NCBI GenBank assembly: GCA_030698465.1
Contig: JAUYJZ010000014.1
Location: 1 to 41,646, forward strand
Length of the DNA stretch: 41,646 nucleotides
From: a bacterium
GTDB lineage: Bacteria > Patescibacteriota > Minisyncoccia > Minisyncoccales > UBA10102
Direction of reading: 5' to 3'
The number at the start of each line of letters is the position of its first letter. Position 1 is the first letter of the stretch. Both the position numbers and the translations under genes were made by a program. This document shows, in pieces, positions 2,764-38,435 of the stretch. The notes below the pieces were generated by a model. The model searched no databases and was not told the origin of the DNA. It saw only the letters and a list, made by a program, of their open reading frames with translations.

Positions 2764-2782
2764 TGATAAATTTTATTAATAA

Positions 2783-2863
2783 AATTTTCAGTTTCCCCCG
2801 TGTCGGAAATTATTCAAAACCGAGGGTTTTGAAAAGAGGGGGGTCGGGGGAAACTGTGTGATC
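2783..2863 (+). repeat. structured ~80-nt repeat, copy 1 (outer stem CAGTTTCCCCCG/CGGGGGAAACTG, inner hairpin TTCAAAACC-GAG-GGTTTTGAA)
   Basis: Near-identical copies lie at 37599-37681 and 37741-37823. This copy fills the rpsK-rpsD spacer and ends 3 nt before the rpsD ATG. Confidence 0.85.
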
Positions 2864-2865
2864 AT

Positions 2866-7463: not shown

Positions 7464-7501
7464 TGCAAAACAAGAGGATTTCAGCTAGAATACGATCACA
7501 C

Positions 7502-7565
7502 GGTTCCTCCCGACCCCACTCTTTTAGAACCTTGCGGTTCTAATATTTCCACCACGGGAAGAACC
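7502..7565 (+). repeat. long-range inverted-repeat bracket F (GGTTCCTCCCG ... CGGGAAGAACC, one mismatch) enclosing hairpin AGAACC-TTGC-GGTTCT
   Basis: Shares CCCGACCCC (left) and CCACCACGGG (right) with bracket B at 14535-14658. Confidence 0.55.
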
Positions 7566-7566
7566 G

Positions 7567-7586
7567 AAATTTTGTAAACAAAATTT
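7567..7586. promoter_or_regulatory. 9+2+9 perfect palindrome AAATTTTGT-AA-ACAAAATTT just upstream of murA (candidate operator)
   Basis: Read directly. It ends about 10 nt before the murA ATG (7597). Confidence 0.35.
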
Positions 7587-8875: not shown

Positions 8876-9889
8876 ATGGGACTCTTTATCTCAAAAATCG
8901 GCATTGATTTGGGCACCAAAAACTCTTTGGTGTTTGTGCCTAAAAAAGGTATCGTACTCAATGAGCCCACGGTTGTTGCGGTTTCCCTGGCTGACAACAC
9001 CATTTTGGCAGTAGGGGAGGCTGCAAAGGAAATGACAGGGAGAACTCCAGACACCATACGCGTGTATCGACCCATGAAAGATGGAGTTATTTCCGATTAC
9101 CGGGTTACCCTGGCTATGCTTCGATATTTTTTAAAAAAGGTAGTGCCAAGATATCAGTTTTTTAAACCCGAAGTGTTAATTTCGGTTCCAGCTGGCATTA
9201 CATCCACGGAACGAAGAGCGGTGATAGAGGCTACCACCAAGGCCGGCTCCCGTGCCGTCTATGTTGCAAAAGAACCCATTTTGGCAGCTATTGGAGCTGA
9301 AATTCCAATCAACTCCACTTCAGGACATATGATTGTGGACATTGGAGGAGGAACCACCGAGGTTGCGGTCATCTCTTTAGGAGGAATTGTTGCTTCCTCA
9401 TCTTTGAGGGTGGCAGGAGACAAGATGGATCAGGCAATCTCAGAATATGTGAAGCGCAAATACAATCTTGCCATTGGAGAAAATATGGCAGAAGAGATAA
9501 AAATCAAGATTGGCTGTGCCCTTCCTTTGAAACCCGAACTCACTTGCGAAGTACGGGGGCGGGACCTTGCCCAGGGACTTCCGAAAAATATCAAGCTTGT
9601 TTCCACGGAAATTGCACAGGCGTTACAGGAACCCTTGCAGGAAATTGTCATGGTTATTAAATCCTTGCTTCGAGAAACTCCGCCCGAGCTTTCAGCTGAC
9701 ATCATGGACAAAGGCATGATTATTTCAGGAGGTGGCGCCTTGCTTAAAAATCTTGACCAGCTTATTTCCCAGACTACGGGAGTCCCATGCTTTTTGGCCG
9801 GAGACCCCTTAACGTGCGTTGCCAGGGGAGCTGGAGCAGTATTGGACAATCTTGAAGTATACAAGAGAAGCATCATGGTCAAAAGATGA
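8876..9889 (+). CDS. mreB: rod-shape/actin-like protein MreB (paralog 1)
   Basis: IGIDLGTKNSLVF, DIGGGTTEVAVISLGG, ISGGGALL motifs. The start ATG lies 1 nt after the murA stop. Confidence 0.92.
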   Translation: MGLFISKIGIDLGTKNSLVFVPKKGIVLNEPTVVAVSLADNTILAVGEAAKEMTGRTPDTIRVYRPMKDGVISDYRVTLAMLRYFLKKVVPRYQFFKPEVLISVPAGITSTERRAVIEATTKAGSRAVYVAKEPILAAIGAEIPINSTSGHMIVDIGGGTTEVAVISLGGIVASSSLRVAGDKMDQAISEYVKRKYNLAIGENMAEEIKIKIGCALPLKPELTCEVRGRDLAQGLPKNIKLVSTEIAQALQEPLQEIVMVIKSLLRETPPELSADIMDKGMIISGGGALLKNLDQLISQTTGVPCFLAGDPLTCVARGAGAVLDNLEVYKRSIMVKR

Positions 9890-13477: not shown

Positions 13478-14535
13478 AAAAGCTGCTGCGAAAACTCATG
13501 TCATATCTGGGCCAGGATATTGCCATTGATTTAGGTACGGCAAACTCTTTGGTGTACGTGCGGGGGAAAGGGATTGTTATCCAGGAACCCTCTGTTGTGG
13601 CTGTGAATCAAAAGACCGGGCAGATTCTAGCCATTGGAGCTGAAGCCAAAAACATGGTGGGAAGGACTCCATCTCATATTGTGGCAACCCGCCCTCTAGT
13701 AAAGGGAGTGATATCGGACTTTGAGGTGACAGAACAGATGCTTCGGTATTTCATCAACAAGGTGGCGCGGAGAAAGTTCCTATTTTCTCTGGGACCGAGA
13801 GTTATCGTGGGCATTCCTTTTGGGGTAACAGAGGTGGAAAAGAAAGCGGTCCGAGATGCCACCCTCAATGCCGGAGCTCGAGAAGTCTACCTTATCGATG
13901 AACCCATGGCAGCTGCCATTGGTTCCAGGCTTTTGGTGCAGGAAGCTGGAGGAAATTTTATTGTGGATATTGGAGGCGGGACCGCCGAGGTAGCCATTAT
14001 ATCTTTGGGGGGTATTGTAACTGCAAAGTCCCTGCGGGTTGCGGGAGATAAATTGAATGAAGATATCATTCAATTTGCGCAAGATGAATACAAACTCTTA
14101 ATTGGCGAGCGAACTGCAGAGGGCCTAAAGCTTGGCATTGGCTCTGCCCATCCTTTAAAAGAGAAAAAAGAGATGCCTTTGCGTGGCCGCAATCTGGTGT
14201 CTGGACTCCCTGAGGAAATCCTGGTGTCAGATACTGAAATTCGGAGAGCCATGGAGCGTTCCGTGCGGCAAATCGTGGGAGAAATCAAGGCTGCCGTGGA
14301 GCAGACGCCTCCTGAACTGTTGGCAGATATCATGGAAAAGGGCATTTATCTTTCGGGCGGAGGAGCTTTATTGCGGGGTCTTGATCTCCTTATCTCAAAG
14401 GAAACCAAGATACCCACGGCTATCGTAGAAGATCCTTTAACGGCCGTGGTGAGGGGAGCTGGTATGGTTTTAGAGAATCTTGATGAACTACAGGATGTAT
14501 TGGTAGAAACAGAAGATTTAGAACCACCGCGATGA
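13474..14535 (+). CDS. mreB: rod-shape/actin-like protein MreB (paralog 2)
   Basis: IAIDLGTANSLVYV, DIGGGTAEVAIISLGG, LSGGGALLRG. ATGA overlap with proS. Confidence 0.92.
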   Translation: MKKLLRKLMSYLGQDIAIDLGTANSLVYVRGKGIVIQEPSVVAVNQKTGQILAIGAEAKNMVGRTPSHIVATRPLVKGVISDFEVTEQMLRYFINKVARRKFLFSLGPRVIVGIPFGVTEVEKKAVRDATLNAGAREVYLIDEPMAAAIGSRLLVQEAGGNFIVDIGGGTAEVAIISLGGIVTAKSLRVAGDKLNEDIIQFAQDEYKLLIGERTAEGLKLGIGSAHPLKEKKEMPLRGRNLVSGLPEEILVSDTEIRRAMERSVRQIVGEIKAAVEQTPPELLADIMEKGIYLSGGGALLRGLDLLISKETKIPTAIVEDPLTAVVRGAGMVLENLDELQDVLVETEDLEPPR

Positions 14536-14658
14536 ATTTTACCCCGACCCCCAATTTTAAGTAATGTGCCGGTGCGATTTTAACGCTCGGCAGGGACGCC
14601 TCGCTAAATCGCCCGTCAAAGTACAGCAGTTTACTTTGACCCACCACGGGGTAAAATT
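14535..14658 (+). repeat. long-range inverted-repeat bracket B (AATTTTACCCCG ... CGGGGTAAAATT, 12 bp perfect) enclosing two internal stems
   Basis: Internal stems are GCGATTT/AAATCGC and GTCAAAGTA/TACTTTGAC. The left arm starts at the mreB stop and the right arm ends 11 nt before the gatC ATG. Confidence 0.7.
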
Positions 14659-14669
14659 ATTCTACAAAT

Positions 14670-16486: not shown

Positions 16487-17005
16487 ATGGACATCTTATT
16501 TCAAACACTTTCTGCAATCAATAACCCTGGGCTTCAGCAAGCCTTAACGCCCTACCGCTGGATTTTGGGTATCGTGGGCGCTCTTTTATTGCTATTTTCT
16601 TTATATATACTGGCGCGTACAATGTGGCTGAAGTTTTCTTTGCTATTTGACCTTACCGAGTTTTTTACCTTTCGTCCGTATGGTCTACGGCGCATGACCG
16701 GAAAGTGGCAGAAGATTCAGCAACGCTTGGGAACCGCAAATGAGGCAGAGTACAAGCTTGCTATTATTGAAGCGGACGGTTTGCTTAATGATATTTTGCT
16801 GCGTATGGGATTTCGCGGCGAAACCCTGGGAGATAGGCTAAAGACGCTTACACCTGCTATTATTCCTAATCTCAACGATGTATGGCAGGCGCATCAGACC
16901 CGGAACAACGTGGTCCATGACCCTGATTACCGCCTACCCTTGGGGGAGGCACAAAAGACACTCGCAATCTACGAGCAGGCCTTTGGCAATCTCGATTTGA
17001 TTTAG
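16487..17005 (+). CDS. hypothetical membrane-anchored protein
   Basis: 172 aa. It has one TM segment (WILGIVGALLLLFSLYILA) and a helical C-terminal domain. Confidence 0.5.
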   Translation: MDILFQTLSAINNPGLQQALTPYRWILGIVGALLLLFSLYILARTMWLKFSLLFDLTEFFTFRPYGLRRMTGKWQKIQQRLGTANEAEYKLAIIEADGLLNDILLRMGFRGETLGDRLKTLTPAIIPNLNDVWQAHQTRNNVVHDPDYRLPLGEAQKTLAIYEQAFGNLDLI

Positions 17006-17784
17006 GTATTACGTATAAGTCCTTCGATCCAGCCGTGTATCTTTCTTCGTAGCGAGGTTCCTTGTTTGACTGTAATGCGCAGAGTTCCCATATAGGTTTC
17101 GGGATGTGGGTAGATTTTGTTTGGCTTTGTCTTAATAATCGTAGTTTTTGTAAATTGGTGGAATGGAATTCTGGTAAGTTTAGACCAATAGCTTTCAATT
17201 TCCGGGATTCGCTTTTGATGCAATTTATTTACTTTTATATGGAGTGTAATCCGCTCTTTAGAAATCTTGCAAATTTCTTTAAACCATTTCAATATCAGAA
17301 GGATAAGTTTTGGATCTGAGTTTGTGAACCCAACTTGTTCGCCCCCAGGATAGGTGTATCCTTCGCTCCAGTACATCCCCACACCAAGGATAAAAAGATC
17401 CCGCTCGGTCAAAACGCCAATTTCCTTTATTGATTTCTTGCGAAGGAAAGCAGTCTCTATTATTCGCGAACCGGCTCGTTTGGCCTTGGCGCGCTTACTA
17501 CCTTTGATCTCTCCGGAAATTTCTCGTTTCTTCAATCGCGTTCTTTGTGCGGGTGTAAGTTTTATATCCTTTGACCACATACTGAGCGATCCACCTTTTT
17601 CTATTTTAAGTCGTTTAGCAATCTGACTAAAACTAAAACCAGCTCGGCGTAATCGCTGGACACGAGTTTTTTGAAGAGAGGCCAATTTTTGCATACTTGT
17701 TGCGGGAGCCGGAATTGCACCGGCGTCGCAAGGTTCTTTCTCTACCTTTTGTTTCCAAAAGGAATGGACTATCCCATTTCCCAT
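17002..17784 (-). CDS. HTH + LAGLIDADG-type homing-endonuclease-family protein (free-standing)
   Basis: N-terminal HTH (RRAGFSFSQIAKRL) and a single LAGLIDADG-like motif (LFILGVGMYWSEGYT). An alternative start is the ATG at 17694. Confidence 0.65.
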   Translation of the reverse strand: MGNGIVHSFWKQKVEKEPCDAGAIPAPATSMQKLASLQKTRVQRLRRAGFSFSQIAKRLKIEKGGSLSMWSKDIKLTPAQRTRLKKREISGEIKGSKRAKAKRAGSRIIETAFLRKKSIKEIGVLTERDLFILGVGMYWSEGYTYPGGEQVGFTNSDPKLILLILKWFKEICKISKERITLHIKVNKLHQKRIPEIESYWSKLTRIPFHQFTKTTIIKTKPNKIYPHPETYMGTLRITVKQGTSLRRKIHGWIEGLIRNT

Positions 17785-18040
17785 TCGGGAATCCCCATTA
17801 TAGTCTCTGAACCTTCTCGCCTGAGGCGAACTTGGCTGCTGATTGCCAAATCCCTCCTTATTTTTAACCGTTCACGCTCATTCTTGCGAATCACGTTGTA
17901 GGAAGAAGGGCTCTTATGGTTTTCCAGCAATTTCGGGGATTTTCATCAAGATGTTTCCATCTTGCGCCACACGTTTGTATGGGCCTCGCATGGTACTACT
18001 CCACTATCCCGCATACCTAGTATATCCAAAAAAGAAGCGC

Positions 18041-18080: not shown

Positions 18081-18152
18081 GGCTGCGTAGCTCAGTGGCA
18101 GAGCAAAGGACTCATAAGCCTTAGGTCAGTGGTTCGAATCCACTCGCAGCCA
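18081..18152 (+). tRNA. tRNA-Met (anticodon CAT; elongator-like, could be tRNA-Ile2 if lysidinylated)
   Basis: Hand-folded cloverleaf: acceptor GGCTGCG/CGCAGCC, D-stem GCTC/GAGC, anticodon loop CTCATAA, T-arm AGTGG-TTCGAAT-CCACT. CCA is not encoded. Confidence 0.85.
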
Positions 18153-18168
18153 CAAGGACTGAATATAT

Positions 18169-18244
18169 GCGGGCGTAGCTTAGCCTGGTTTAAAGCGCTT
18201 CCCTGTCACGGAAGAGATCGCCGGTCCAAATCCGGTCGCCCGCG
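18169..18244 (+). tRNA. tRNA-Asp (anticodon GTC)
   Basis: Acceptor GCGGGCG/CGCCCGC, anticodon stem-loop CTTCC-CTGTCAC-GGAAG, T-arm GCCGG-TCCAAAT-CCGGT, discriminator G. Confidence 0.88.
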
Positions 18245-37000: not shown

Positions 37001-37208
37001 AGATTTCAGATCCCAAGATGGGCTTGATACCCTTCTCTTTAGCCTTCTTGTAGAACTCTACGGCACCATATAAGTTTCCGTGGTCGGTAAGAGCAATAGA
37101 ATCCATGCCAAGCTCCTTTACCCTATCTAAAAGCTGGTCTATTTTGGGCAGACCGTCTAATAATGAGTAGTGTGAGTGCGTATGTAAATGGGTAAATTGC
37201 TGACTCAT
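34008..37208 (-). CDS. dnaE: DNA polymerase III alpha subunit
   Basis: 1066 aa. PHP domain HLHTHSHYSLLDG, polymerase core, C-terminal OB region. Confidence 0.97.
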   Translation of the reverse strand: MSQQFTHLHTHSHYSLLDGLPKIDQLLDRVKELGMDSIALTDHGNLYGAVEFYKKAKEKGIKPILGSEIYLAFESMDQKRPKIDDTIYHMVVLVKNQEGYKNLVKILTAGHLKGFYYKPRVDEAFLKEHAEGLIALSGCLNGKIPRLLRAKKKQEAEEVALRYQEIFGKENFYLELQKHPNIPEQKIVNQGLLELSKKLSIPVVATADSHYLRPEDAEAQDILMLINTGARPDDPERLTLTADDFSLKSQRDMEELFSDAPESVTNTGLIAKACNFELELGVTRLPVFPLPDGKKADEYLRELCLEGLKARPELQKNPEAAKRLEFELGVIRQTGFAPYFLIVQDFVNWAKGKRIVVGPGRGSVGGSLVAYLLKITNINPLQYNLLFERFLNPERVSLPDIDLDFADYRRDEVIQYVAEKYGHDRVAQIITFGTMAARAVIRDVGRALGYEYSYCDRVAKMIPFSHTLQQTLEQVAEFKELYDTDEKAKRLIDLAQKLEGVARHASTHACGVVIAAQSLNSMVPLQHPTQNDENIVTQYEMHSIEDLGLLKMDFLGLKNLSVIEDTLKRIYVIYGKNVDIDQIPQDDPAVYKLFQDANTIGIFQVESEGMRRYLRELKPTEFEDIIAMIALYRPGPMELIPEYIARKHKRKKISYLHEKLKPILENTQGICIYQEQVMKIAQDLAGFSLAQADVLRKAVGKKIMELLMEQKEKFVKGMIDNGIQKGIADKIWEWVLPFARYGFNKSHSAAYATIAYQTAWLKTHYPVEFMSALLTAERNDIERIAFLIEEAKKMGIEVLSPDINESFSNFSVVPQKNQIRFGLLAIKNVGEGIVEAIITERKKTGPYHSMQDFISRISSTNLNKKSLECLIKTGVFDVFADRNKLLFNLERLLQAARESFKVQNGAQQSLFAKAEQSTPQLPLQDAEATNENQKLLWEKELLGLYVSSHPLDSLKNLLEKKAFSIAKIMNQEPVRQTAGAPFSRIRIGGIISSIKRIITKSGKPMLFLGLEDLTAKIEVVVFPSVIEKYPTLFQENKIVLVAGRVNQYQGIKKFVAEEVEEFQEVT

Positions 37209-37219
37209 ATTGATGAATG

Positions 37220-37271
37220 CACGCCTGCCCCGTACCGAACCGAGGGTTCTGGTGCGGGGTGGAGATGCGTG
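37220..37271. repeat. miniature variant of the structured repeat (CCCCGTACCGAACC-GAG-GGTTCTGGTGCGGGG inside CACGC/GCGTG)
   Basis: Shares the 11-mer AACCGAGGGTT with copies 1 and 3. Its right arm is the complement of ACCCCGCAC found in brackets C and D. Confidence 0.6.
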
Positions 37272-37273
37272 AA

Positions 37274-37562
37274 CCCCCCACCACTTTTACGTGAGTTCAA
37301 TGGAGTTGCTAATTCGTTTTTTGAGCTCTGCATAGGAATTTTTGAATTGCTTCAATTTTGATTCTCTCGTGCGCGCGTCTTTCTCTGATTGATAAGCTTC
37401 ATAGTAGACCAACACAAGAGGAGTTCGATATTTTGTAGATTTGTTGAGACTTTGATTATGCTCGTTAAGACGTTTTCGGAGGTCATTGGTTGATCCTATA
37501 TACAACCTACCATCTTTCTTACTTTTCAATACATAAACATAAAACATGAAAGTGGTGGGGGG
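37274..37562. repeat. 14-bp perfect inverted repeats (CCCCCCACCACTTT / AAAGTGGTGGGGGG) exactly bracketing the GIY-YIG ORF
   Basis: Left arm 37274-37287 touches the stop codon. Right arm 37549-37562 starts 2 nt beyond the ATG. Confidence 0.8.
37287..37547 (-). CDS. small GIY-YIG (URI-domain) nuclease-family protein
   Basis: FYVYVLKSKKDGRLYIGSTNDLRKRLNEHN...ARTRESKLK is the classic GIY-YIG pattern. Confidence 0.88.
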   Translation of the reverse strand: MFYVYVLKSKKDGRLYIGSTNDLRKRLNEHNQSLNKSTKYRTPLVLVYYEAYQSEKDARTRESKLKQFKNSYAELKKRISNSIELT

Positions 37563-37598
37563 TGAATTTTCCCATGAAAGCGTAAAATTTGTAGGACA

Positions 37599-37681
37599 AA
37601 TTTTCAGTTTCCCCCGTGTCGGAAAAATCTTAAAAACCGAAGGTTTGTAAAAGAAGGGGGGTCGGGGGAGACTGTGTGACC
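37599..37681 (+). repeat. structured ~80-nt repeat, copy 2 (most diverged)
   Basis: CAGTTTCCCCCG...CGGGGGAGACTG (U-G wobble on + strand) with inner TTAAAAACC-GAA-GGTTTGTAA. Confidence 0.8.
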
Positions 37682-37740
37682 GTTTTCATTGTATAATATT
37701 CCTATGCAAAGTTCAAAGGGCATTGAAAATCTGCATTCGC

Positions 37741-37823
37741 AGATTTTGGGTTTCCCCCGTGTCGGAAATTATTCAAAACCGAGGGTTTTGAAAAGAAGGG
37801 GGGTCGGGGGAAACCCTGTGATC
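37741..37823 (+). repeat. structured ~80-nt repeat, copy 3
   Basis: GGGTTTCCCCCG...CGGGGGAAACCC (compensated outer stem). The inner hairpin is identical to copy 1. It overlaps the rnhB start region. Confidence 0.85.
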
Positions 37824-38435
37824 GTGGCTGGAGTAGACGAGGCGGGACGAGGCCCCTTGGCGGGTCCCGTGGTTGCCTGCGCCCTAGTTATCTTAACTAA
37901 GCGCGCGATGCCGAATCGAGAATCAAGAGCTTTTAAGTCTCACCCGGGAATACTCAAGGATTCAAAGCAGCTTACCCCAAAACAGAGAGAAGAATGGTAC
38001 CGCTTTTTTCTGCATAATCCTAATATTCAATGGGGGATTGGAAGGGTATCAGAGCGAGTCATTGACCGCATAAACATTTATCAAGCGACCCGTCTTGCCA
38101 TGGAACGTGCGGTCTGGAATCTTTCAAAAAAAGTTGCTCTCAATTTTCTGTTTATTGATGGAAATATGCGTATTACAACCTCTATTCCTCAAAAAGCCGT
38201 GGTGCGAGGGGATGAAAAGATTCAGCTTTGCTCAGCAGCCTCCATCGTTGCCAAGGTCACCCGAGATCATATAATGATGCGCTACCACAAGCAATATCCT
38301 CGATACGGCTTTGACAGGCACAAGGGATACGGCACGGTACTTCATCTGGCACGATTAAAAAAATACGGACCTTGTTCAATCCATCGAAAGACCTTTTCTC
38401 CCATCAATACCTTAGCCAGTCTAAGGAATCCTTAG
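37818..38435 (+). CDS. rnhB: ribonuclease HII
   Basis: AGVDEAGRGPLAGPVV catalytic N-terminus. The tracked ORF starts at 37689, but the first ~43 codons read through repeat copy 3. GTG at 37818 or 37824 are the likely starts. Confidence 0.85.
   Translation: MIVAGVDEAGRGPLAGPVVACALVILTKRAMPNRESRAFKSHPGILKDSKQLTPKQREEWYRFFLHNPNIQWGIGRVSERVIDRINIYQATRLAMERAVWNLSKKVALNFLFIDGNMRITTSIPQKAVVRGDEKIQLCSAASIVAKVTRDHIMMRYHKQYPRYGFDRHKGYGTVLHLARLKKYGPCSIHRKTFSPINTLASLRNP

Follow-up and report, generated by a model that had tools for sequence, protein, structure and literature searches.

The structured repeat preceding rpsD was most probably one copy of a selfish mobile element that is non-autonomous and has a folded hairpin as its unit. 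The window (the whole stretch of DNA analysed, 41.6 kb) contained five copies, three on the plus strand and two on the minus strand, and the conserved core was found in more than 120 metagenome loci and three CPR genomes, mostly as a circular permutation. Judged by analogy, the element would resemble MITEs, REPs and Rickettsia palindromic elements (RPEs). The genomes of CPR/Patescibacteria are small and are thought to be poor in repetitive DNA; yet in some lineages this ORF-less hairpin was as dense as one copy every 2.6-8 kb. It occupied essential genes and an RNase P RNA, and filled the same conserved sites in distant genomes.

The sequence-only reading had reported three full copies of about 80 nt, all on the plus strand (2783-2863, 37599-37681 and 37741-37823). 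These three were recovered at those positions, and the covariance model (R1) added two diverged minus-strand copies and one fragment. The unit was longer than had been proposed; its full form here was about 100 nt and consisted of an AT-rich 5' hairpin (P0), the core, and a TGTGAYCR tail. The copies and their parts are listed below, with the genes flanking copies 4 and 5 named by Pfam.

2764-2865, plus strand: copy 1, whole inserted unit (R1 85 bits; synteny with L130-L135)
2768-2787, plus strand: P0 of copy 1, AAATTTTATT/AATAAAATTT
2789-2799 with 2846-2856, plus strand: outer stem of copy 1
2800-2812, plus strand: junction of copy 1, GTGTCGGAAATTA
2813-2833, plus strand: apical hairpin of copy 1, loop GAG at 2822-2824
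2838-2845, plus strand: first G-run plus TC of copy 1
2857-2865, plus strand: tail of copy 1, TGTGATCAT
7492-7586, minus strand: copy 4, diverged member in the spacer between a NUDIX gene (plus strand) and aroA (plus strand, ATG 7597); R1 match at 7496-7570 (47.3 bits, E 4.8e-9); junction GUGGUGGAA, apical loop GCAA
7567-7586, minus strand: P0 of copy 4
7492-7500, minus strand: tail of copy 4, TGTGATCGT
14530-14662, minus strand: copy 5, larger diverged member filling the mreB-gatC spacer (R1 27.2 bits, E 2e-4); outer stem AAUUUUACCCC/GGGGUAAAAUU, junction GUGGUGG, GGGGGUCGGGG, branched interior
37223-37258, plus strand: probable remnant or miniature copy, GCCTGCCCCGTACCGAACCGAGGGTTCTGGTGCGGG, with partial model matches at 37237-37249
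37583-37682, plus strand: copy 2, whole inserted unit (R1 74.7 bits)
37584-37604, plus strand: P0 of copy 2, AAAATTTGT-AGG-ACAAATTTT
37605-37615 with 37664-37674, plus strand: outer stem of copy 2, with one U-G pair; apical loop GAA
37675-37682, plus strand: tail of copy 2, TGTGACCG
37726-37824, plus strand: copy 3, 99-nt unit, in frame after rnhB codon 7
37726-37747, plus strand: P0 of copy 3
37748-37758 with 37806-37816, plus strand: outer stem of copy 3
37817-37824, plus strand: tail of copy 3, TGTGATCG

The three plus-strand copies had a mean column identity of 87%, and the 19-mer GTTTCCCCCGTGTCGGAAA occurred three times in the window (0 expected). The single-nucleotide indels reported between copies were found again, copy 1 having lost 1 nt compared with copies 2 and 3. 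In the probable remnant, CCCCG/CGGGG arms enclosed the apex AACCGAGGGTT, and reading-frame reconstruction against L136 placed it inside the displaced ancestral 5' end of dnaE; this call is weak, because the 9-mer alone would be expected about 0.3 times by chance.

On comparison with syntenic sequences, copies 1, 2 and 3 are insertions, since the matching sites of relatives were empty. Copy 1 filled exactly the interval from the rpsK stop to the rpsD ATG, which was 102 nt in the window and 1-19 nt in L130-L135 (TAA-T-ATG in L132). Copy 2 had no counterpart in L136 and L138, in which the dnaE and rnhB starts were 30 nt apart; the empty site was CATGGATACG^TTATTTCATTG and the filled site was CATGAAAGCG[insert]TTTTCATTG. 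For copy 3, the empty site of L138 was ...AAGCGGATTG^TGGCTGGA, and the filled site of the window and L136/L137 was ATTG[99 nt]TGGCTGGA. The corresponding RnhB N-termini were MQSSKRIVAGIDE in P0123 and MQSSK.IENLHSQILGFPRVGNYSKPRVLKRRGVGGNPVIVAG in P0121 and P0128. The insertion of the window copies was precise, with an ambiguous target duplication of at most 0-2 nt, and their left flanks (TAA, GCG, TTG) had no common target tetranucleotide.

The ancestral start of rnhB was ATG 37704, with an extended -10 box (TGTATAAT) at 37690-37697. All copies had been described as lying directly 5' of start codons; this applied to copy 1, but copy 2 lay upstream of the rnhB promoter, and copy 3 lay downstream of this leaderless-type promoter, inside the rnhB ORF. 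Copy 3 was in frame and contained no stop codon; its predicted peptide, if translated, would be GFPRVGNYSKPRVLKRRGVGGNPV. The element also breaks assemblies and misleads annotation: a 4.3-kb Logan contig of the same organism ended inside copy 1, and the 243-aa RNase HII annotated by NCBI reads through copy 3.

Judged from protein identities, occupancy of the rnhB and rpsK/rpsD sites departs from phylogeny. The rpsK/rpsD site was also filled in the distant L139 (S4 69.5%) and was empty in the closer L132, L130, and L134 (S4 80-85%). The rnhB site was filled in the window and L136 (RnhB 63% identical) and was empty in the closer L138 (73%). Copy 3 was 99-100% identical to the L136 element, while the flanks were about 70% identical.

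Folding reproduced the architecture first described. The three plus-strand copies each had an outer stem of 11-12 bp, an asymmetric internal loop, and an apical hairpin of 9 bp whose loop was GAG or GAA (folding energies of -27 to -37 kcal/mol; z-scores of -2.1 to -3.7). The conserved core consisted of a (C)n/(G)n-closed helix, an asymmetric junction, and a second hairpin with AACC-loop-GGUU at its end; the two strands of the junction read GUG-NN-GGAA and (G)n+1-UC. In 80 of 91 copies, the first G-run varied in length with the C-run. GNRA tetraloops capped P2 in 24 of 84 copies, and GCGAAGC was present in P4 of 18 of the 84. Of the copies, 90 had the permuted topology and 18 the window-type topology, the two being circular permutations of each other. 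Every unit opened with a hairpin that lay between A and T runs. The conservation seen for GTGTCGG and ACCGARGGT was partly an ascertainment effect of the search patterns used. No ORF was seen inside the element, and no ORF-bearing form was found.

Both helices covaried strongly. In 16 window-type and 36 permuted homologues, 95.6% and 98.8% of the cells were paired, compared with 74% and 84% in 500 shuffles, and 76 and 98 cells were altered on both sides, compared with 25 and 32. None of the 500 shuffles matched the observed values, and slid registers collapsed. The compensatory stem changes seen between the window copies were thus borne out on the larger set. A T-G pair taken as a wobble of plus-strand RNA was present as the single U-G pair of copy 2, but it did not extend to a trend: G-U pairs made up about 0.4% of stem cells (2 of 576, and about 8 in roughly 1,700), and the minus strand folded equally well or better (z-scores of -5.9 and -6.4). 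The apex C-GAG/GAA-G and the P4 GCGAAGC fit the cGNAg DNA mini-hairpin motif. Scarce G-U pairs, equal folding of both strands, antisense copies, and cGNAg-like loops are pointers to folding at the DNA level. Pairing of the junction UCGG with the apex CCGA in a pseudoknot was rejected, as L081, L059, and L057 alter one side only; copy 4 appeared to compensate it (GUGG with CCGC).

Half of the more than 120 metagenome loci lay directly downstream of a tRNA gene and were flanked by a duplicated tRNA 3' end. Direct repeats of 12-49 nt flanked 31 of the 42 copies linked to a tRNA and 14 of the other 46 (null control 0). At the tRNA-linked copies (31 of 42), the exact repeat of at least 12 nt started in the T-loop and extended at least as far as the 3' end of the tRNA, which stayed intact. 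At least 16 tRNA species plus non-tRNA sites were used, each with a matching repeat. The repeat-to-repeat distance was 119-286 nt, which leaves no room for an integrase gene. The element also carried an inverted copy of the repeat start. A spacer separates the left repeat from the core, and the idea that it is a full inverted target copy was only partly true (median 41% of the repeat); inverted copying exceeded a z of 3 at only 10 of 44 loci and generally covered only the first 8-13 nt. Many tRNA-linked copies sat after a terminator-like hairpin. The flanks GGATTCGAAC / GGTTCGAATCC had suggested tmRNA, a tRNA-like RNA, SRP RNA, or 5S rRNA. These were rejected because the upstream tRNA was intact and the flank duplicated its 3' end; no acceptor pairing exists.

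The core junction with its covarying helices spanned Saccharibacteria, Jorgensenbacteria, and Wildermuthbacteria-like genomes. L139 had six copies on a 15.5-kb contig (four on the plus strand and two on the minus strand, with all genes on the plus strand), the rnhB copy of L136 was its only one, and about 48 kb of closer relatives contained zero copies. One copy, in another organism, was located in a linker of an RNase P RNA, and that RNA still scored 117.8 bits. The neighbours were unrelated (metG, aroA, gatC, tRNA genes, and RNase P RNA). All-against-all clustering of the ORFs within 4 kb of about 115 loci revealed no transposase, integrase, or reverse transcriptase near the element, no recurrent partner protein (only housekeeping genes clustered), and no cognate autonomous IS with matching ends. 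The core pattern had no matches in IMG/VR, which was scanned for phage carriage. tRNA-adjacent copies lay on the strand of the tRNA in 59 of 63 cases and on the opposite strand in 4, and copies between co-directional genes were sense in 26 cases and antisense in 8. The sequence-only reading had held that copies in random orientation relative to genes would speak for a DNA-level repeat; two of the five window copies and two of the six L139 copies were antisense to the flanking genes, and a DNA-level repeat is therefore favoured.

The statement that the repeat matches no known RNA family agreed with the Rfam scans of the window and the permuted loci. Rfam 15 at gathering thresholds detected only a group I intron and two tRNAs in the window; at E up to 10, the region of copies 2 and 3 yielded nothing but miRNA noise, at most 15 bits. 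With E up to 1, the best match among eight permuted loci was IMES-3 (24.7 bits, threshold 55), which spanned only the apical hairpin plus flank and was judged to be a chance match. No Rfam model of the self-cleaving ribozyme classes matched at E up to 10. No earlier description was found in the literature searched, although absence there is not proof of novelty.

The element was compared with known mobile repeats. It was like MITEs in its ORF-less units of about 100 nt and in its multiple copies (five in the window and six in L139). Its inverted repeat of 11-12 bp is the outer stem, outside which P0 and the TGTGAYCR tail extend, and unlike MITEs it had no short target-site duplication of fixed length. 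Correia/CREE, ERIC, and the pneumococcal RUP/BOX/SPRITE repeats were likewise small, non-autonomous, and multi-copy, with inverted-repeat arms. These repeats often lie immediately upstream of genes, are co-transcribed, and show lineage-specific expansion (PMC10969869). By features alone, RPEs were similar as ORF-less palindromic repeats of about 100-150 nt in the reduced genomes of host-dependent bacteria. RPEs occur in RNA genes as well, which is paralleled by the copy inside an RNase P RNA. Protein-coding genes are not destroyed when RPEs insert into them in frame (PMC10969869); here one such case was documented, the 99-nt copy in rnhB. The element differed from RPEs in host phylum, in its conserved asymmetric junction and circular permutations, and in its strong tie to tRNA 3' ends with target duplication.

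At the ends of IS200/IS605, in REP/BIME-RAYT systems, and at integron attC sites, the enzyme recognises a folded hairpin with unpaired or extrahelical bases and not the primary sequence; the helices covary, and insertion occurs without target duplication. The near-absence of G-U/G-T pairs in the element fits such single-stranded DNA hairpin sites. REP/BIME sequences are 20-40-nt imperfect palindromes with a GTAG head, and the RAYT gene is flanked by REPs; by contrast, the element consensus had no GTAG head and no RAYT was nearby. It also differed from attC sites, having no R''/R' boxes (RYYYAAC/GTTRRRY), and by inspection stem ends such as CAGTTTCCCCC/GGGGGAAACTG did not fit; no Y1 transposase, RAYT, or IntI was found near the element. 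Tyrosine integrases have the T-loop sublocation of tRNA genes among their target sites, and the direct repeat of the element begins in the T-loop. The element differed from tRNA-targeting integrative elements in that the whole "island" was about 120-290 nt without an integrase, and in the range of its targets (at least 16 tRNA species and non-tRNA sites) and the inverted repeat-start copy.

Under the mobile-element interpretation, the element would be moved within a genome by a trans-acting enzyme recognising the folded hairpin and the unpaired junction. The substrate would most likely be single-stranded DNA, by analogy with IS200/IS605 ends, REP/RAYT, and integron attC. Between genomes, it may spread by homologous recombination through highly conserved flanks where it tends to survive, such as tRNA 3' ends, the rpsK/rpsD junction, and the rnhB 5' end. 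Effects on host genes would be by-products: copy 1 would uncouple rpsK and rpsD, and copy 3 might either add 33 residues to the protein or be skipped by restarting translation at a GTG. A small mobile structured element had been among the initial suggestions, and it is this one that the empty and filled sites, the copy number on both strands, the direct repeats elsewhere, the lack of an ORF, the covarying helices, and the absence of an Rfam match support. Against it stand the failure to find a mobilising enzyme or an autonomous relative, the lack of a target-site duplication at the window copies, and the variable long direct repeats with an inverted target start at other copies; we know of no transposition mechanism that yields this. 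Conservation of the junction across classes together with permutation typifies a functional RNA fold more than a transposon end. The tRNA co-orientation (59 of 63), the sense bias (26 versus 8), and the GNRA loops (24 of 84) also count against it, and near-identity across genomes could mean purifying selection for a host function and not recent transfer. To our knowledge, no transposition mechanism explains an invariant asymmetric junction, permutation, T-loop-linked duplication, and an inverted target copy with no enzyme. This combination could thus be a sign of an undescribed pathway of mobilisation or of a new functional nucleic-acid fold.

Rather unlikely, though the strongest competitor, is that the core is a functional structured RNA that also moves, either a small ribozyme of a new kind that cleaves or integrates itself or a ("punctuation") signal for RNA processing, carried on a retroelement- or intron-like unit and functional on the strand described in the sequence-only reading. 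Hammerhead and twister ribozymes occur naturally in circularly permuted forms and in multiple copies, and are associated with mobile elements (PMC3088659); the element shares with them two permuted topologies, a compact multi-helix core, and invariant junction nucleotides. The invariant asymmetric junction and covarying helices across CPR classes, the GNRA tetraloops on P2, co-orientation with tRNA genes (59 versus 4), and tolerance inside RNase P RNA (117.8 bits) and rnhB agree with such an RNA. The variable-length direct repeats resemble the footprints of target-primed reverse transcription, and the match of G-run and C-run lengths (80 of 91) hints at tertiary or alternative pairing. However, there was no ribozyme or other Rfam match even at E up to 10, no cleavage site could be assigned, and no strand-specific wobble signal was present, G-U pairs being essentially absent despite about 100 double substitutions. 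The reverse strand folded as well or better (z of -5.9 and -6.4), antisense copies were common, and copy 3 was in frame and stop-free, as if translated and not removed. No reverse transcriptase lay within 4 kb of about 115 loci, and natural variants contradicted the junction-apex pseudoknot. Less probable still is that the core of about 70 nt is a new class of catalytic or self-integrating RNA, circularly permuted like hammerhead and twister. Such a core would drive its own homing-type insertion beside conserved hairpins, for example tRNA T-arms, with part of the target copied in direct and inverted orientation; if true, it would be the smallest known homing RNA element, specific to CPR bacteria.

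That selection keeps the element at conserved sites as a DNA or RNA module useful to the host, with constraint and not transfer behind the near-identity between genomes, appears improbable. Such a module could be a transcription terminator or insulator, a hairpin that stabilises mRNA, or a signal for recombination or uptake. The units start with a hairpin between A and T runs, a terminator-like hairpin precedes many tRNA-linked copies, and copy 3 was 99-100% conserved against flanks of about 70%; SPRITE, Correia, and ERIC repeats provide precedents, as they can serve as terminators or RNase targets (PMC10969869). On the other hand, terminator and promoter scans at the copies gave nothing above shuffled expectation, the 5' hairpins are weak because they are AT-only, close relatives lack the element at the same sites, and copy number varies enormously among related genomes. 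A cis-regulatory mRNA leader of rpsD and rnhB, whether an RBS-sequestering switch, a riboswitch, or an operator for an r-protein or other protein, is the least credible explanation and very unlikely, and the switch and protein-binding leader proposed at first found no support. Copy 1 does abut the rpsD ATG, with a G-run 15 nt upstream of it, one C-run faces two G-runs, so that two alternative pairings are possible, and the sense bias is moderate. But the insertions were lineage-specific, the element being missing from the orthologous leaders of close relatives (rpsK-rpsD 1-19 nt). Copy 3 lay within the rnhB ORF, past the promoter, and copy 2 before that promoter; the neighbours were unrelated (metG, aroA, gatC, tRNAs, RNase P RNA), some copies were antisense, and no Rfam cis-regulatory family matched.

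RNase HII adjacency recurred in three to four loci, probably due to synteny. A peptide search for further in-frame insertions returned one protein, P0241, which led to L139.

The three plus-strand copies of the hairpin repeat were present where the sequence-only reading had placed them, with a mean column identity of 87% in the alignment; a 19-mer of the 5' arm occurred exactly 3 times (0 expected). Each folded into an outer stem of 11-12 bp, a large asymmetric internal loop and a 9-bp apical hairpin. The stem differences noted between copies were genuine (CAG/CTG versus GGG/CCC; TTC/GAA versus TTA/TAA), as were the single U-G pair in copy 2 and, for the indels, a 1-nt deletion in copy 1. The covariance model R1, built from 16 window-type homologues and run without filters over the window, recovered these three copies (75-85 bits) and added two on the minus strand, so that the earlier inventory was correct but incomplete.

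Copies of the element in the window (z in parentheses, reverse complement)
2764-2865, plus strand: copy 1, apical loop GAG, -32.3 kcal/mol, z -3.7 (z -5.9)
37583-37682, plus strand: copy 2, apical loop GAA, -27.0 kcal/mol, z -2.1 (z -2.7)
37726-37824, plus strand: copy 3, apical loop GAG, -36.8 kcal/mol, z -3.3 (z -6.4)
7496-7570 (R1 match), minus strand: copy 4, diverged, 47.3 bits, E 5e-9
14530-14662, minus strand: copy 5, diverged, R1 27.2 bits, E 2e-4
37223-37258, plus strand: probable 36-nt remnant, apex AACCGAGGGTT

Copy 4 had the layout of the other copies (AT-rich 5' hairpin, core, tail TGTGATCGT), with the junction GUGGUGGAA and apical loop GCAA; copy 5 was larger and branched. They lay between NUDIX and aroA and between mreB and gatC, respectively, and were antisense to their neighbours because the flanking genes are all on the plus strand.

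The contig belongs to an NCBI MAG, and its closest named relatives were Candidatus Wildermuthbacteria. Every copy in the window is read as an insertion, with site comparisons given for copies 1-3. The distance from the rpsK stop to the rpsD ATG was 1-19 nt in the syntenic contigs L130-L135 (RpoA 75-80% identical) and 102 nt in the window, which holds copy 1; the empty site of L132 read CGCGTGTAA-T-ATGCAAAAAGG. Copy 2 was absent from the related contigs L136 and L138, in which only 30 nt separated the start of dnaE from that of rnhB. The true rnhB start is the ATG at 37704, preceded at 6 nt by an extended -10 box (TGTATAAT). For copy 3, the empty site in L138 read ...AAGCGGATTG^TGGCTGGA, and a 99-nt unit stood at exactly this point in the window and L136/L137. 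This unit was in frame within rnhB and stop-free, and the NCBI annotation is therefore a 243-residue read-through RNase HII. No target duplication beyond 0-2 ambiguous bases was visible at the window insertions. From the comparison of empty and filled sites, the inserted unit ran from a 5' hairpin (P0) through the core to the tail TGTGAYCR; P0 followed the pattern AAAWYTNN-loop-NNARWTTT and its arms covaried across copies.

The public RNase HII annotations P0121 and P0128 (243 and 241 residues; window 37704-38435) read through the element, and homologues without the insert had about 195-215 residues. In the interval 37690-37706, and likewise in L136 and L138, the extended -10 box lies only 6 nt before the ATG and no Shine-Dalgarno sequence was present, which suggests that the rnhB mRNA is leaderless. 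A similar TGGTATAAT directly preceded an ATG in another contig, L002.

The rnhB site was filled in the window and L136 (RnhB 63% identical) and empty in L138 (73%), and the rpsK/rpsD site was filled in the window and L139 (S4 69.5%) and empty in L132, L130 and L134 (80-85%). Site occupancy was not in line with relatedness. The rpsK/rpsD copies of the window and L139 shared their P0 type, and the element was about 92% identical between them. Against L136, the window element was 99-100% identical and the surrounding DNA about 70%, the identity falling off over some tens of bases on either side. We infer that the element spread horizontally, and recently, into conserved sites; homologous recombination via conserved flanks would be the most economical route, and strong purifying selection is the alternative explanation of the near-identity. 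The 15.5-kb contig L139, with all genes on the plus strand, carried six copies (4 plus, 2 minus; one cut by the contig end), the rnhB copy was the only one in L136, and a search of about 48 kb from closer relatives found none. A Logan contig of the window organism terminated inside copy 1. The behaviour of the element is that of a mobile repeat that recurs in a homing-like way.

Among GTDB species genomes, a scan found one Jorgensenbacteria MAG and two Saccharibacteria MAGs with window-type copies, and a metagenome scan matched at least 120 loci; among the matches listed, 90 were permuted, 18 window-type and 4 nested. The permuted order was 5'-P1 - (G)n+1 UC - [P2 hairpin starting (G)n ... ending (C)n] - GUGUCGGAA - [P3 hairpin ...AACC GAG GGUU...] - GGAG - [P4] - GACG - P1'-3'. 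By comparison, the window type had P2 open at the loop end, lacked P1 and P4, and had AAGAA joining P3 to the G-run. The compensatory pairing claimed for the three copies extended to both topologies: paired cells amounted to 95.6% in 16 window-type sequences (74.1% in shuffles) and 98.8% in 36 permuted sequences (84.4%), and cells changed on both sides numbered 76 (24.7 in shuffles) and 98 (31.6), with 0 of 500 shuffles as high in any of the four comparisons. Slid registers all collapsed in both types. Copies found by models rather than by search patterns had the junction GUG-NN-GGAA, the apical loops GAG, GAA, UAG, GUG, GAC, GAGA, GAGU and GCAA, and a constant GGGGUCGGGG; part of the apparent invariance is therefore ascertainment.

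In the nested forms (L017 4950-5080, L069/L080 and L086), a permuted core stood within a window-type outer stem (GCAAGCCCCC ... GGGGGCUUGC), with two G-blocks per unit; they are either an element inserted into an element or a larger ancestral architecture. Permuted and window-type copies also occurred together on one contig, about 1 kb apart or less, in L015/L066 (8016-8087, plus; 9071-9128, minus) and in L075 (1510-1578 and 1637-1703), whose window-type copy had a 22-nt flanking direct repeat that is also the 5' half of a terminator-like hairpin.

Among the matches listed, 59 of 127 followed a same-strand tRNA gene within less than 200 nt, and only about four lay on the strand opposite to the gene; the tRNA species involved numbered at least 16. 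The order at these sites was intact tRNA, terminator-like hairpin, a segment antisense to the T-loop/T-stem of the tRNA (the P1 5' strand), core and P4, and an exact duplicate of the 3' end of the same tRNA, mostly 14-24 nt and beginning in the T-loop. Flanking direct repeats of at least 12 nt were found in 31 of 42 tRNA-linked copies, 14 of 46 others and none in the control, among the matches listed (longest 49 nt), and the P1 5' strand repeated the initial 8-13 nt of the right-hand repeat in inverted orientation. An RNase P RNA in L029 contained a window-type copy in the unpaired stretch that links its P2 and P4 3' strands, and still scored 117.8 bits. No ORF was present inside any copy examined, no recurrent protein family was found among ORFs within 4 kb of about 115 loci, and an IMG/VR scan with the core pattern gave no matches.

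The sequence-only reading had offered an RBS-sequestering switch, a protein-binding leader or a small mobile structured element. Both regulatory readings did not hold up against the empty sites, the position of copy 3 in an ORF, the unrelated neighbours and the antisense copies; the third was supported by the empty sites and multiple copies. A non-autonomous mobile structured element is the best-supported interpretation, and a single-stranded-DNA hairpin may serve as its substrate, in the way known from IS200/IS605 ends, REPs and attC sites. In its behaviour the element resembles MITE-like repeats, among them Rickettsia palindromic elements (PMC10969869). It lacks defining features of each compared family: it has no fixed target duplication (MITEs), no GTAG head (REPs), no R boxes (attC sites) and no cognate enzyme among the ORFs within 4 kb of about 115 loci. 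The long flanking repeats of variable length, together with the inverted copy of the target start, are not known to be produced by any described transposition mechanism. The repeat had not been recognised as a known RNA family, and no earlier description of it was found in Rfam 15 or in the literature, which is not proof that none exists.

A ribozyme, retroelement or other mobile functional RNA is the main rival and is considered improbable. Pointers to RNA were the conserved asymmetric junction, the circularly permuted core, the co-orientation with tRNA genes and, among the matches listed, GNRA tetraloops capping P2 (24 of 84 copies) and an excess of sense copies between co-directional genes (26 sense, 8 antisense). 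Pointers to folding at the DNA level were the near-absence of G-U pairs (2 of 576 cells in the alignment A4; about 8 of roughly 1,700 in a wider count), the equally good folding of both strands and the frequent antisense copies. Even with some 100 double changes that preserve pairing, G-U cells were no commoner than A-C cells or the remaining mismatches. The apex C-GAG/GAA-G and the P4 sequence GCGAAGC (18 of 84 copies among the matches listed) match cGNAg mini-hairpins, which are unusually stable in DNA, and also point to DNA. The first G-run was one longer than the C-run in 80 of 91 copies among the matches listed, so the two G-runs facing one C-run, noted earlier as a possible switch, are a conserved feature with no sign of switching; this relation, with few independent changes behind it, could reflect an alternative helix or a G-G-C triplex.

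Other features of the window
37287-37547, minus strand: GIY-YIG nuclease gene, 86 residues (Pfam PF01541, E 4e-18)
17745-17999, minus strand: complete group I intron (Rfam 72.6 bits, E 1e-16)
1545-1644: inverted repeat of about 100 nt (ACCCCGCCCTCTATGCTGTATGT / ACATAGAGTTTAGAGGGCGGGGT, 87% complementary)
8897-8982 and 13519-13604; 9802-9855 and 14430-14483: mreB-like direct repeats

Positions 37209-37830 form a hot spot for insertions. The GIY-YIG gene lay within a 289-bp cassette (37274-37562) whose 14-bp terminal inverted repeats (CCCCCCACCACTTT / AAAGTGGTGGGGGG) match perfectly and which has a TGAA duplication of 4 bp. L136 and L138 lack this cassette, which has gone into the first codons of the ancestral dnaE. 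That ancestral 5' end, whose orthologue in L136 is MEKFTHLHVHS, was displaced and broken (37209-37273 and 37563-37577; MGKF|THLH...VHSSI*), and the present start at 37208 had a second, synonymously diverged copy of the motif (MSQQFTHLHTHSHYS). The group I intron overlapped a minus-strand ORF of 260 residues (17002-17784) at the ORF's 5' end and adjoined plus-strand tRNAs (18081-18152 and 18169-18244). The inverted repeat separated infA from a small rpmJ gene (about 1670-1786), had no counterpart in L139, and may represent either a leader or a further structured insertion. Two paralogous mreB-like genes, 4.6 kb apart, shared the direct repeats (71-74% identical), with copy 5 of the element lying after the second gene.
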